Of a DNA stretch of 64,000 nucleotides, positions 58,446 through 64,000 are shown piece after piece. This stretch comes from Escherichia coli. GTDB lineage: Bacteria; Pseudomonadota; Gammaproteobacteria; Enterobacterales; Enterobacteriaceae. How positions within the stretch are numbered: position 1 is the first letter of the stretch; each line of letters begins with the position of its first letter. The notes beneath the pieces are model-generated. The model had not been told where the DNA came from. It searched no databases and saw only the letters and a program-made list of their open reading frames with translations. A program made the translations under genes and the position numbers. The stretch lies in NCBI RefSeq assembly GCF_001677475.2, contig NZ_CP015229.1. The stretch is one strand, 5' to 3'.

Positions 58446-59945
58446 TTAACTCGCCGTTTCAGGTTTAAACACAATTTCCTGTTTTTCTTCATCTTCCTCG
58501 ACGACTGGCGCAGTGCTGTGAATTTCAGCAACGCGTTTGCGCACACCAAACCAGCCTATAACCAGCAGAATACCGATAATCGGCAGCGCCGCGATGGTAT
58601 AAGTCCCGTTCGGGTAATCGAATGCCATCAGCACCAGGACACTCAGTAAAAACAGTAATGTCAGCCAGGAAGTGAAGGGCGCGCCAGGCAGTTTAAAACT
58701 GACATCCGCTGCTTTGCCTTCTTTAATCGCTTTACGCAGGCGCATCTGGCACACGATGATAAACGCCCATGAAGCGATGATTCCCAGCGACGCGAAGTTC
58801 AACACAATCTCAAATACGCGCGACGGCACCAGATAGTTGAGGAATACGCCGACGACATAAACGACCAGTGTCGCCAGAATCCCGGCATACGGCACATGCT
58901 GACGGCTCATTTTCGCCATAAAACTCGGTGCGGAACCGCCCATCGCCATCGAGCGTAGAATACGTCCGGTGCAGTACAGACCTGAGTTCAGGCTGGAGAG
59001 GGCAGCGGTCAGCACCACAATGTTCATAATGCTGCCGATGTACGGCACACCCAGTTTAGAGAAAAACGTCACGAACGGACTTTGCCCAGCCTGATACGCG
59101 CTCCACGGCAATAACATAACCAGCAACACCACGGAGCCGACGTAAAACAGGCCAATACGCCAAATCACACTGTTAATCGCTTTAGGCACCATGGTCTGCG
59201 GATCTTTACATTCTCCGGCAGCTGTACCCACCATTTCAATGGAGGCAAAAGCAAACACTACGCCCTGAATCAACACCAGAGCAGGAAGCAAACCGTGGGG
59301 GAAGAAGCCGCCATTATCGGTGATTAAATGAAAGCCAGTGGTGTTGCCATCCAGCGGCTGACCACTACCGAGGAACACTGTACCCACGACCAAAAAGGTC
59401 ACAATGGCGAGCACTTTAATAAGCGCAAACCAGAACTCCATCTCCGCAAACCATTTCACACCAATCATATTCATGGTGCCAACGATGGTAAGTGCAGCGA
59501 GCGCAAAGACCCACTGCGGCACGCCGCCAAACGCCCCCCAGTAATGCATATACAGCGCTACAGCGGTGATATCGACAATCCCCGTCATCGCCCAGTTAAT
59601 GAAGTACATCCAGCCTGCAACGTAAGCGGCTTTCTCTCCTAAAAACTCACGGGCATAAGAGACAAAGCTGCCACTGGAAGGGCGATGTAACACCAGCTCA
59701 CCCAATGCACGCAGAATAAAAAACGAAAACAGGCCACATATTAAATAAACCAGTGCCAGCGCAGGACCCGCCATTTGCAGTCGGGCTCCTGCACCTAAAA
59801 ACAAGCCGGTGCCAATCGCGCCGCCAATGGCGATCATCTGCACCTGGCGATTGCCCATCGCTTTGTGATACCCCTCTTCGTGGGCATTAAGCCAGCGGCG
59901 TTTCGCGGCGTGTTGATCTGGAGTGTCGGTGTCGTGTTTACTCAT
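58446..59945 (-). CDS. ansP: L-asparagine permease (APC family)
   Basis: Start at ATG 59945 (MSKHDTDTPDQHAAKRRWLNAHEEGYHKAM) inside track ORF 58446..59996; 499 aa. Confidence 0.9.
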   Translation of the reverse strand: MSKHDTDTPDQHAAKRRWLNAHEEGYHKAMGNRQVQMIAIGGAIGTGLFLGAGARLQMAGPALALVYLICGLFSFFILRALGELVLHRPSSGSFVSYAREFLGEKAAYVAGWMYFINWAMTGIVDITAVALYMHYWGAFGGVPQWVFALAALTIVGTMNMIGVKWFAEMEFWFALIKVLAIVTFLVVGTVFLGSGQPLDGNTTGFHLITDNGGFFPHGLLPALVLIQGVVFAFASIEMVGTAAGECKDPQTMVPKAINSVIWRIGLFYVGSVVLLVMLLPWSAYQAGQSPFVTFFSKLGVPYIGSIMNIVVLTAALSSLNSGLYCTGRILRSMAMGGSAPSFMAKMSRQHVPYAGILATLVVYVVGVFLNYLVPSRVFEIVLNFASLGIIASWAFIIVCQMRLRKAIKEGKAADVSFKLPGAPFTSWLTLLFLLSVLVLMAFDYPNGTYTIAALPIIGILLVIGWFGVRKRVAEIHSTAPVVEEDEEKQEIVFKPETAS

Positions 59946-60295
59946 TGCTCTCCCTGATTGCTTTAATGAAAAAGTCATATAAGTTGCCATGAACAATGTT
60001 TATTCATCCTGGCGATGACAAGATTCACCATTATTCTTTATGGGTATAACTGTCGGCGCAGAATCCTACCTTTTATCGTGTAACGATGCAAAATAATCCC
60101 GCTATAAATATGAGGGGATAAAGGCGGCCGGCAACAAAATAGCAACCTGATGAAATTTTGACGGAAACAACCACTATTGGTTTGATGATGCCCGACGGCA
60201 GTCCTACTCTTGCGCCACTCGTTCGTCGCTCTGAACGCCAGTGGTTGCAGTGGACACTGGCGTGGTTGGCTCATTGAATAGTGAGGTGCTAGCAC

Positions 60296-60472
60296 ATGAC
60301 GGGTTTCAGGGGTAATACACCAAATACCAATACAATTGCTGATTATATGAGCCAATTGCCGATGTTACAGAAAAGGCTAAAAAATGTAAGAGGCATGCAG
60401 GATGATAAACGCGCTATTGCCCAACAGGGGTTTCTGGAATTAGTCCTGTTCCATGGTCATTACAACTCTTAA
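60296..60472 (+). CDS. Hypothetical small protein (58 aa); identity not recognised
   Basis: ATG 60296 preceded by GAGGTG; hand translation MTGFRGNTPNTNTIADYMSQLPMLQKRLKNVRGMQDDKRAIAQQGFLELVLFHGHYNS; not in ORF track. Confidence 0.25.
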   Translation: MTGFRGNTPNTNTIADYMSQLPMLQKRLKNVRGMQDDKRAIAQQGFLELVLFHGHYNS

Positions 60473-60882
60473 AACATTACTTCAATATAATTAATGTGTA
60501 TATCATTCCCGATATTAATTTATGAAGTGAATTTGATATATTCCGAATTCTTAATTTACATTACTAATGTATGGGGCATAACGTTAAGATTGCTATGTGC
60601 AGATTAACATATCAGGGTGGGGCGGTAGCGTTTACAGATATTAATCAATTGATGAGAATTATGTTAACTGCGTAATCATTTGCATCGATTATTGATATTG
60701 AAGATAGATTAATAAAAATGCTGAGAATTAATGTTAAAAAATCATAACGGGAAACGTTGATAACTTGCTTTGATTTCATTTTCTATGAAGATGATGTCAT
60801 CAATACTGTATAAAGTGGAAATGTTGAACATCAAAGAGCGTTTGTGTTTTATCTGAAAGATATTATTTCCAGGGGGAAGGAT

Positions 60883-61013
60883 ATGTCATTAAGGAGAATG
60901 ACATCTGGTGAATTAACATTGGCCAGATCGATTTTTGAGAATACAATTGATTATAGCAAGGTATGGATCCACAATGAAAAATATTTGCCTGGTCAAGGGG
61001 AAAGAACAGCGAT
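60883..61013 (+). pseudogene. 5' fragment of a host ORF interrupted by the prophage insertion
   Basis: ATG 60883 with GGAAGGA RBS; MSLRRMTSGELTLARSIFENTIDYSKVWIHNEKYLPGQGERTAI then reads straight into the Mu-type end at 61014 (track ORF 60844..61083 is the chimera). Confidence 0.4.
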
Positions 61014-61190
61014 TGTATTGATTCACTTGAAGTACGAAAAAAACCGGGAGGACATTGGATTATTCGGGATTTGGCGGGATTAGATTTAGTGGGGCTTGCA
61101 AGCCTGTAGGACAGATTTTAGCCGTTACATCTTGAAACGCGAAAGATTGTTGGAAACAGCTTTTGATTCATTAAAGACACGAAAAGCAAT
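61014..61190 (+). repeat. Prophage attL with transposase end-binding sites L1, L2 and L3
   Basis: L1 about 61019-61040 (TGATTCACTTGAAGTACGAAAA), L2 about 61128-61147 (CTTGAAACGCGAAAGA), L3 about 61164-61186 (TGATTCATTAAAGACACGAAAAG); terminal 5'-TG. Confidence 0.8.
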
Positions 61191-61352
61191 TACTTCACGC
61201 ATCATTTCAAGTACAGCTTCAAAAATGCTTCAAAAACGGTAACAACCAGGCTTTCGGCAAGTGATGTGTGTCAAAAACAATCATCACTGTTTGGGTATCT
61301 TACATATGTAATTACCTAGAGTGAAGTTTATGTCTTAGCTATTACCTGGTTG

Positions 61353-61877
61353 TTATACAGCTTTCTTTACATCGTTTTCTCTTACAGGGAAATTATGTTC
61401 TTTGCCTTCATACTGAGACAAAATCTCTCTCACTTTTTCAGGTGGTAATGCCTGAAGAGTTTGCAGGGTTTTCTGTTGATCCACAGTAATCCCTAATGCC
61501 TCTAATGCCTTATCTTTACTGACAATTGTAGGCATAAGTCCTTTAATCCCTGCTACACGAATGATCTCCACAGCTGCGGCCTGCTCATCTGGTGTTAAGA
61601 AGCTCATTGCATAAATTAGCCTCTCATCAACTGTATGGGCGATTGATGTATGCACTGGTTTATCAGAAAGTGAGGCTCCTTTAATGGCCCTACGTGTTTC
61701 TTCTGGCAGACTGTTGATGTGATACTCATAAGCGACACCTTTCCCACCGTGACGCTGACGTTTTACCCAATCTTCCGCCACAGCTTTCCTGGTAATGTTA
61801 GTCGCCAACTTTGGTACACCAGGCATCCCTTCCAGCTCTTTCGCATTAAACCATTCTTTGATTTCAAAAGACATCAT
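61353..61877 (-). CDS. c: Mu-type lysogeny repressor (174 aa)
   Basis: Track ORF; C-terminus ...NDVKKAV resembles Mu repressor ...QEVKKAV; N-terminal region resembles the transposase N-terminus; leftward orientation as in Mu. Confidence 0.85.
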   Translation of the reverse strand: MMSFEIKEWFNAKELEGMPGVPKLATNITRKAVAEDWVKRQRHGGKGVAYEYHINSLPEETRRAIKGASLSDKPVHTSIAHTVDERLIYAMSFLTPDEQAAAVEIIRVAGIKGLMPTIVSKDKALEALGITVDQQKTLQTLQALPPEKVREILSQYEGKEHNFPVRENDVKKAV

Positions 61878-62057
61878 TTAAAATCCTAGCGATTTCAATA
61901 GAGACAAAATAAATTCATATAAAAATCATGCCGTTATATGAAATCATGGTAAATACTTTCAAATCTCTATTGATTTGAAAATGATTCCACACTACATTGC
62001 ACGATATGCCGTGAGCTACTTTATAGCGTAGCTCACGGGGGAATCTGAAAGGATTAC
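61878..62057. promoter_or_regulatory. Prophage early control region (operators, divergent promoters, transposition enhancer) by position
   Basis: Intergenic AT-rich region between divergent repressor and ner; individual operators not resolved by eye. Confidence 0.5.
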
Positions 62058-62062
62058 ATGAA

Positions 62063-62284
62063 ATGCATATGAATAAAAGAACTAACCGCCAAGATTGGCA
62101 CAGAGCTGACATCGTTGCAGAGCTACGAAAACGCAATATGTCACTAGCTGAATTGGGAAGATCTAATCATCTTTCGTCTTCAACATTAAAAAATGCTTTG
62201 GATAAGAGATATCCGAAAGCGGAGAAAATCATTGCAGATGCACTGGGAATGACACCGCAAGATATTTGGCCGTCTCGATACTAG
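62063..62284 (+). CDS. ner: Ner-like DNA-binding regulator of early transcription (73 aa)
   Basis: Track ORF; [33 protein letters not shown]... resembles Mu Ner (...DWHRADVIAGLKKRKLSLSALSR...); AAGGA RBS. Confidence 0.85.
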
Positions 62285-62291
62285 GTGCGCT

Positions 62292-64000
62292 ATGAAAGAA
62301 TGGTATACAGCAAAAGAGTTGCTCGGTTTGGCAGGTTTACCAAAGCAAGCCACTAACATTACACGTAAGGCACAAAGAGAAGGCTGGGAGTTCAGGCAGG
62401 TTGCAGGGACTAAAGGTGTATCATTTGAATTCAATATCAAATCATTCCCTGTCGCATTACGTGCTGAAATTCTGTTGCAACAAGGGAGAATTGAAACAAG
62501 CCAGGGGTATTTTGAAATCGCCCGCCCCACGCTGGAAGCCCACGATTACGATCGCGGGGCACTGTGGAGCAAATGGGATAAAGCCAGCGATTCCCAGCGC
62601 AGACTTGCTGAAAAATGGTTGCCTGCAGTTCAGGCCGCAGACGAAATGCTGAACCAGGGGATTTCAACAAAAACGGCTTTTGCGACCGTTGCAGGACATT
62701 ACCAGGTCAGCGCATCCACTTTGCGAGACAAGTATTACCAGGTACAGAAGTTTGCGAAGCCTGACTGGGCGGCTGCACTTGTTGATGGACGTGGTGCATC
62801 TCGTCGCAATGTTCACAAAAGTGAATTTGACGAGGATGCCTGGCAGTTTCTGATTGCAGATTATCTGCGACCGGAAAAACCCGCCTTCCGCAAATGTTAT
62901 GAGCGTCTGGAACTGGCAGCCCGCGAGCATGGCTGGAGTATTCCCTCCCGTGCCACGGCCTTTCGCCGGATTCAGCAACTGGACGAGGCAATGGTTGTTG
63001 CCTGTCGTGAAGGTGAACATGCACTGATGCATCTGATACCGGCACAGCAGCGAACTGTGGAACACCTGGACGCCATGCAGTGGATCAACGGCGACGGTTA
63101 TCTGCATAACGTCTTTGTACGCTGGTTTAACGGTGATGTGATCCGCCCGAAAACATGGTTCTGGCAGGATGTGAAAACCCGAAAAATTCTGGGCTGGCGC
63201 TGCGATGTGAGCGAGAACATTGATTCAATTCGCCTCTCGTTCATGGATGTGGTGACACGCTACGGCATCCCGGAAGATTTTCACATCACCATTGATAACA
63301 CCCGTGGGGCAGCGAATAAATGGCTGACGGGGGGCGCGCCCAATCGTTACCGCTTTAAGGTGAAAGAGGACGATCCAAAGGGACTGTTTTTACTGATGGG
63401 CGCGAAAATGCACTGGACAAGCGTTGTTGCCGGTAAAGGCTGGGGCCAGGCAAAACCTGTTGAACGTGCTTTCGGTGTTGGTGGGCTTGAGGAATACGTT
63501 GATAAGCATCCGGCACTGGCTGGCGCATATACGGGGCCAAATCCGCAGGCAAAACCTGATAACTATGGCGACCGTGCTGTTGATGCAGAGCTGTTTCTGA
63601 AAACCCTTGCTGAAGGTGTGGCGATGTTCAATGCCAGAACAGGCCGTGAAACAGAAATGTGCGGGGGCAAACTCTCGTTTGATGATGTTTTCGAGCGTGA
63701 ATACGCCAGAACGATTGTGCGTAAGCCAACCGAAGAACAAAAACGGATGCTGTTACTGCCTGCCGAAGCGGTGAACGTTTCACGCAAAGGCGAGTTTACG
63801 CTTAAAGTTGGCGGCTCCCTTAAAGGCGCGAAAAACGTTTATTACAACATGGCGTTAATGAATGCAGGCGTGAAAAAAGTTGTGGTCAGGTTTGATCCGC
63901 AGCAGCTACACAGCACAGTTTATTGCTACACCCTGGACGGTCGGTTTATCTGTGAAGCGGAATGTCTGGCACCTGTTGCATTTAATGATGCTGCGGCAGG
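62292..64000 (+). CDS. A: MuA-type DDE transposase, N-terminal ~569 codons (3' end outside window)
   Basis: Not in ORF track because there is no stop before the window end; hand translation [32 protein letters not shown]... with DDE residues at codons 268 (INGDGY), 335 (ITIDNTRG) and 391 (PVERAF). Confidence 0.9.

Follow-up and report, generated by a model that had tools for sequence, protein, structure and literature searches.

Validated small proteins of Escherichia coli are defined by direct translation evidence, usually accompanied by an intact frame that is conserved across strains. Another described system with which the present locus can be compared is YncG of E. coli K-12 (b1454), a 205 aa member of the GST family, the gene for which follows ansP and precedes yncH and rhsE in the K-12 order. 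Jackson et al. 2009 (PMC2935791) give yncG as the gene that flanks E. coli rhs locus 6 on the left. Overexpression of yncG has been associated with increased tolerance of H2O2 (PMC8228696), and the same paper relates that YncG was without GST activity in an earlier study. The role of yncG is evidently modest and the gene dispensable.

Here, a 58-codon ORF located within a 64-kb window (the whole stretch of E. coli DNA that was analysed, 64,000 nucleotides) was examined. With a probability of roughly 0.88, this ORF is an accidental frame through the remains of yncG, a non-functional relic that is open in one small lineage. It is very probably not a gene, and its product, if made, would be expected to lack a function. 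The relic resembles K-12 YncG in its place, its orientation and its two homologous blocks, but differs in that it retains only ∼38% of the length and is without the promoter, the start, most of GST_N and most of the C-terminal domain. The N-terminal thioredoxin-like GST_N domain of the K-12 protein (Pfam GST_N_2/GST_N_3, residues ∼2-78) cannot be formed by the relic, from which codons 1-56 have gone, and the relic cannot encode a GST; with these domains missing, glutathione-dependent activity would be implausible. Compared with validated E. coli small proteins, the 58-codon ORF is alike in being shorter than 60 aa and in starting with ATG behind a good Shine-Dalgarno sequence, but unlike them its frame is broken in relatives. 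The ORF is accordingly best regarded as an ordinary pseudogene relic at the known yncG locus, and new biology would follow only if translation were shown.

Coordinates and start site of the 58-codon ORF

The initial annotation had described an unrecognised ORF of 58 codons, with a plausible ribosome-binding site, between ansP and an AT-rich tract. Its coordinates and length were borne out (Table 1), as was its placement, with ansP upstream and a drop in GC content downstream, 60400-60900 having 0.30-0.33 as against ∼0.50 for 60100-60300. The ribosome-binding site was likewise upheld: a GAGGTG at 60283-60288 is separated from the ATG at 60296 by a 7-nt spacer, constituting a Shine-Dalgarno match, and the same motif at a spacing of 5-9 nt precedes only 2 of the 2,294 ATG triplets on both strands of the 64-kb window. 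The start codon and ribosome-binding site expected of a small-protein gene are thus both present, and this Shine-Dalgarno-like sequence means that any transcript crossing the region could be translated. The length of the ORF, on the other hand, is uninformative, because the six frames of the window contain 251 ORFs of 58 codons or longer; many non-genic ORFs of such length are found between 57000 and 64000 alone, and the length is not beyond chance.

Table 1. Features of the ansP-yncG relic region, with positions counted from the first nucleotide of the window
Feature	Position	Strand	Basis or remark
ansP (L-asparagine permease, 499 aa)	58446-59945	-	annotated in matching RefSeq genomes; conserved left neighbour
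ansP-yncG intergenic DNA	59946-60122	.	collinear with K-12
Antisense 105-codon ORF	60038-60355	-	TTG start
Block B, yncG codons 57-101	60139-60269	+	ungapped nucleotide alignment, tblastn, HMM
39-codon ORF	60158-60277	+	RefSeq hypothetical protein WP_001317812.1; yncG codons ∼63-101
Internal-deletion junction	60270-60294	+	yncG nt 302-513 replaced by 25 nt; alignments
Block C, yncG codons 172-203	60295-60391	+	first ∼32 codons of the 58-codon ORF; nucleotide alignment, HMM, tblastn
58-codon ORF	60296-60472	+	ATG at 60296-60298, TAA at 60470-60472; product MTGFRGNTPNTNTIADYMSQLPMLQKRLKNVRGMQDDKRAIAQQGFLELVLFHGHYNS
Codon 17 of the 58-codon ORF	60346-60348	+	TAT in the window
Codon 35 of the 58-codon ORF	60398-60400	+	CAG in the window
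Read-through extension	60401-60472	+	23 codons and stop, into DNA once downstream of yncG; consequence of TAG>CAG
AT-rich intergenic tract	60473-60882	.	upstream of the next chromosomal gene
176-aa gene, first 44 codons	60883-61014	+	cut by prophage; intact in L016-L019 and RefSeq genomes
D108/Mu-like transposable prophage, left end	61015-64000	+	97.8% identity to Escherichia phage D108
c repressor	61353-61877	-	
ner	62063-62284	+	
transposase A	from 62293	+	

Descent of the sequence from yncG

Although the ORF had been entered as unrecognised, an identity was found for it, namely the 3' tail of an internally deleted and 5'-truncated yncG that is read in a fortuitous frame. Its position is exactly that of yncG in K-12, and synteny is retained, the relic adjoining ansP on the opposite strand at the flank of the rhs locus. 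When K-12 YncG was compared with window positions 59946-61013 by tblastn, two collinear matches in one frame were obtained, the first between YncG 54-101 and 60128-60277 (E 3e-11) and the second between YncG 175-200 and ORF residues 4-29 (13 of 26 residues identical, E 8e-5). An HMM of the YncG family, which was built from 114 full-length proteins and has a family length of 205 residues, identified only two significant places in the six-frame translation of the whole window, corresponding to HMM positions 54-104 (21 bits, E 7.6e-8, block B) and 175-201. The ORF alone scored 13.6 bits against the latter positions, a value reached by none of 5,000 composition-preserving shuffles (maximum 10.0).

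Nucleotide alignment to K-12 gave the same picture. Positions 60139-60269 correspond without gaps to yncG nt 171-301, and 60295-60391 to yncG nt 514-608, the latter with a local score of 66 against a shuffle mean of 20.4 (sd 3.0, maximum 34), such that both matches to the head of the ORF, by profile and by nucleotide, were covered by shuffle controls. A weak match inside yncG was also returned by blastn of the window against K-12. Upstream of the relic, 59800-60122 is 92% identical to K-12 (L003 4836-5160), and this homology ends 87 bp before the K-12 yncG start, while the 5' end of ansP is identical or nearly so to that of K-12. Judging from these alignments, the head of the 58-codon ORF is the 3' tail of yncG.

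A pure chance ORF in intergenic DNA that was never coding would account for the abundance of frames of this length in the window, for the low GC content and for the lack of a Pfam or NCBIfam match, but it is very improbable, the collinear same-frame matches to YncG by protein, profile and nucleotide exceeding every shuffle control at exactly the position that yncG occupies in K-12. Searches against Pfam and NCBIfam returned no family match for the ORF, the 39-aa ORF, the joined relic translation, or the 176-aa and 118-aa proteins encoded downstream; Pfam finds GST_N in K-12 YncG, and none in the ORF or the joined translation. The fragments of the relic lack the length that generic GST models require.

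In protein sequence, the relic is only ∼41-50% identical to K-12 YncG, indicating descent from a divergent yncG-like allele as opposed to the K-12 allele. A 20-mer that is invariant in all alleles was scanned against 100,044 species-representative genomes and was found only in Escherichia sp. E1V33, which carries the relic with frameshifts, and in one Chloroflexi MAG as a chance match; no intact progenitor closer than the K-12/Citrobacter-type YncG was found among these genomes. No meaningful similarity to YncH was found in the region, where the best match scored 18.5 bits, covered 35 residues and lay on the opposite strand; yncH is simply absent from the allele in the window.

Structure of the relic and opening of the frame

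The allele lacks the yncG promoter, ribosome-binding site and codons 1-56 owing to one deletion, and codons ∼102-171 owing to a second; between them, these deletions removed most of the gene, with codons 57-101 and 172-205 as the survivors. Two stops in the yncG frame, TGA at 60275 and TAG at 60290, lie in the junction between the two blocks, as does the GAGGTG referred to above. An uninterrupted yncG frame of ∼205 codons with its own start is absent, given the two deletions, these two stops and a 1-nt indel. Two divergent alleles, from CUWW06 (L011) and Escherichia sp. E1V33 (L021), have kept an additional 12 nt at the second junction that encode FADY, equivalent to YncG 110-113, and this junction is therefore an old deletion scar.

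The ATG of the ORF is an out-of-frame cATGa that spans yncG codons H172/E173 (CAT GAA), and an extra base near 60310 (CAGGGG versus CAGG) shifts the ORF into the yncG frame. Any translation would start out of frame in codons 172/173, pass through the 1-nt insertion and then continue along the final ∼30 yncG codons. Since ORF residue 30 aligns with HMM position 201, the end of the 205-residue family falls at residue 34, which places codon 35 opposite the native yncG stop in the ungapped protein or profile alignment. Codon 35 appears to be that stop, with the qualification that gaps in the nucleotide alignment near the 3' end leave the equivalence uncertain. The extension beyond it (60401-60472) resembles neither YncG nor YncH and matches no family.

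In relatives, the frame is closed. Codon 17 is a stop in all 17 homologous copies read outside the window lineage, being TAA in the 14 ungapped copies from other lineages and TAG in three copies of divergent alleles, and codon 35 is TAG in all ten ungapped copies that come from neither the window lineage nor the sister lineage. In ten RefSeq genomes fetched to span 94-98% identity, codon 17 is always TAA and codon 35 always TAG. The sister lineage (L022-L025), which encodes a 36-aa peptide and is the closest relative at 98.6-98.9% identity, combines TAA at the first of these codons with CAG at the second. The alleles of CUWW06 and E1V33, which are ∼83% identical, have TAG at codon 17 and single-base deletions that lead to frameshifts. 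In CUWW06, moreover, an IS1B lies inside the relic (L011:1800-2497) at ORF codons ∼33-40, which is further evidence that the stretch tolerates disruption. Homology to YncG, taken together with the deletions and the stops in relatives, indicates that the ORF is a by-product of gene decay.

Parsimony suggests both an order and a direction for the loss of the two stops. The deletions and the nonsense codon at position 17 would have come first, being common to all relic alleles, including that from cryptic-clade Escherichia. A TAG>CAG change at codon 35 would have followed before the window and sister lineages parted, the outgroup base being T. Finally, a TAA>TAT change at codon 17, confined to the window lineage, would have left the frame open to the TAA at 60470. 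The possibility that TAT at codon 17 is ancestral was considered and rejected, since TAA is present in the sister lineage and in all other ingroup alleles; the G in the outgroup is by itself not decisive.

Five substitutions, clustered within 111 nt (60319-60429), set the window lineage apart from the ten two-stop RefSeq alleles; of these, three occur in the window lineage alone and the sister lineage has the other two as well. Elsewhere in the 381-bp segment that surrounds the ORF, no such private change is seen in the window. This cluster may represent a small recombination patch or chance.

Distribution and selection

The 381-bp segment was found in 786 of 5,426 complete E. coli genomes at 94-98% identity, with the ORF unannotated in all of them. 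The best match to the ORF itself in this set was 96.0%, and the intact 58-codon frame was absent from all 5,426 complete RefSeq genomes. K-12-type yncG is present in 4,608 of the same genomes, and if the two sets are disjoint then yncG and the relic together account for 5,394 of 5,426, which is nearly all. Such counts would be expected if yncG and the relic were alternative alleles of a single locus, and suggest that they are. The border between ansP and the rhs locus would then carry a two-allele polymorphism, with intact-type yncG in ∼85% and the deleted relic in ∼14% of complete genomes.

A search of protein databases for homologues, proposed at the outset as a check on the ORF, returned only the identical 58-aa peptide, from 37 contigs of one small E. 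coli lineage, and the 36-aa truncated form; as a protein, the ORF is essentially without homologues. Eight loci with the intact frame were fetched, four with a Mu insertion at the same site and four without. Over 441 nt, seven of the eight match the window at every position and the eighth differs by one base, and since these loci are nearly identical there is no variation with which selection could be tested within the lineage. In the ungapped alleles, the frame of the ORF has 6, 10 and 8 variable sites at codon positions 1, 2 and 3, respectively, with a density (0.136 per site) comparable to that of flanking non-coding DNA. The 58-codon frame shows no sign of purifying selection, nor is an intact frame conserved in related genomes, as would be expected of a small-protein gene.

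The data also bear on whether the reopened tail of the pseudogene might be a very young small-protein gene, the 58-aa peptide of which has a lineage-specific role. The favourable start site, which is rare by chance, the stepwise loss of stops, for which the intermediate lineage is seen, and the presence of the intact frame in assemblies with and without the Mu insertion, and hence not in a single clone, are all consistent with such a gene, and the ORF is indeed called 'hypothetical protein' by some pipelines and assemblies. Nevertheless, this explanation is unlikely: the frame is intact only in a shallow lineage and in none of the complete RefSeq genomes, no promoter-like site was picked up upstream on the plus strand by a scan of a weak kind, the upstream region of yncG is deleted, no family is matched, and the substitutions are without third-position bias. 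A particular case, in which the peptide, made up of what was once a GST C-terminal helix and of 23 new residues, would be the translated product of a proto-gene under incipient selection, is slightly less probable again; were it true, it would amount to the datable birth of a small protein from a pseudogene within E. coli. A counterpoint to the relic reading is that two stop-removing changes fall within 52 nt and five lineage-specific substitutions within 111 nt. This clustering could reflect selection for opening of the frame, with a recombination patch or chance equally possible. The case serves as a caution that a good ribosome-binding site and an open frame in a single genome are no evidence of a gene.

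Promoter and RNA signals

A consensus scan of 59900-60296, a type of scan that is weak, revealed no sigma-70-like site on the plus strand, and no terminator-like site was found when the region was scanned for promoters and terminators. Several promoter-like sites on the plus strand do occur at 60533-60947, in or near the AT-rich tract. A search of Rfam 15 with a permissive E-value returned only snoR27, a eukaryotic snoRNA family, at 60640-60732 and thus outside the ORF, with a sub-threshold score of 30.9 bits against a threshold of 41.

These promoter-like sites, together with the retention of the 381-bp segment at 94-98% identity in 786 genomes, would be compatible with the stretch having importance as non-coding DNA, either as a small RNA or as a regulatory or H-NS-bound leader of the downstream cluster that comprises the 176-aa and 118-aa genes and vgrG. 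Such a role is improbable, however, in view of the lack of any Rfam family above threshold and of any terminator-like site, the equivalence in density of variation between the ORF and neighbouring DNA, and the insertion of IS1 and ISEc1 in or near the segment in other strains, where the segment has not been lost.

Neighbouring reading frames in the relic

The 39-codon ORF that corresponds to WP_001317812.1 is, from its alignment to YncG, a fragment of the yncG pseudogene. It starts with TTG in the window and with ATG in ST131-type alleles. Like the 58-codon ORF, which it precedes by 18 nt and with which it shares a frame, it is a fragment of this relic, but it differs in that it is intact in all ungapped alleles sampled, where the 58-codon ORF is interrupted, and is sometimes annotated. 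For the purposes of annotation, the two ORFs are to be treated as two fragments of one yncG pseudogene and not as small-protein genes.

An antisense frame of 105 codons is open in 9 of 10 alleles and overlaps the ansP promoter region. Differences between alleles are overwhelmingly amino-acid-changing in this frame, which is annotated nowhere. It is probably spurious, and was set aside as an open frame of the kind commonly found antisense to DNA that was once coding.

Genomic setting

The suggestion that the ORF sits at the edge of an apparently acquired region holds in part. The ORF does lie at the border of a variable region, but the foreign prophage begins only at 61015, ∼540 bp downstream. 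Since the foreign element starts there, the ORF and the AT-rich tract belong to the chromosomal ansP-yncG-rhs/vgrG variable locus, and the relic marks the eroded border of this known hypervariable locus. The left end of the prophage, which begins TGTATTGATTCACTTGAAGTACG, matches D108 from base 2 of the record. Among draft assemblies of the window lineage, L012-L015 have the prophage at the same site and L016-L019 are without it; Pfam HTH_Tnp_Mu, DDE_2 and MuB were identified in the identical loci of the former group.

An intact copy of the 176-aa gene that is cut by the prophage is present at L016:6588-7118, the window diverging from L016 after ...CAGCGAT. Matching RefSeq genomes contain, in this order, ansP, the 39-aa hypothetical protein, the 176-aa gene, the 118-aa gene and vgrG, no feature being annotated between the second and the third of these, and the RefSeq names for the 176-aa gene are inconsistent, being either 'type IV secretion protein Rhs' or hypothetical. 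The 176-aa protein has a HEMMH motif (HExxH, metallopeptidase-like) and no Pfam match. The 176-aa and 118-aa genes, which are situated just 5' of vgrG, may constitute a type VI secretion cargo or effector pair.

Within the AT-rich tract, a block of 122 bp (60513-60634, including TATCAGGGTGGGGCGGTAGCG) is 76% identical to K-12 DNA located between yncH and rhsE (L003:6492-6615). In ST131 (L007), similarity to the window stops inside this block after ...GATATCAGGG, and is followed by ISEc1 (ISAs1-family, ydcC). The block may represent conserved rhs/vgrG border sequence or an insertion hot spot.
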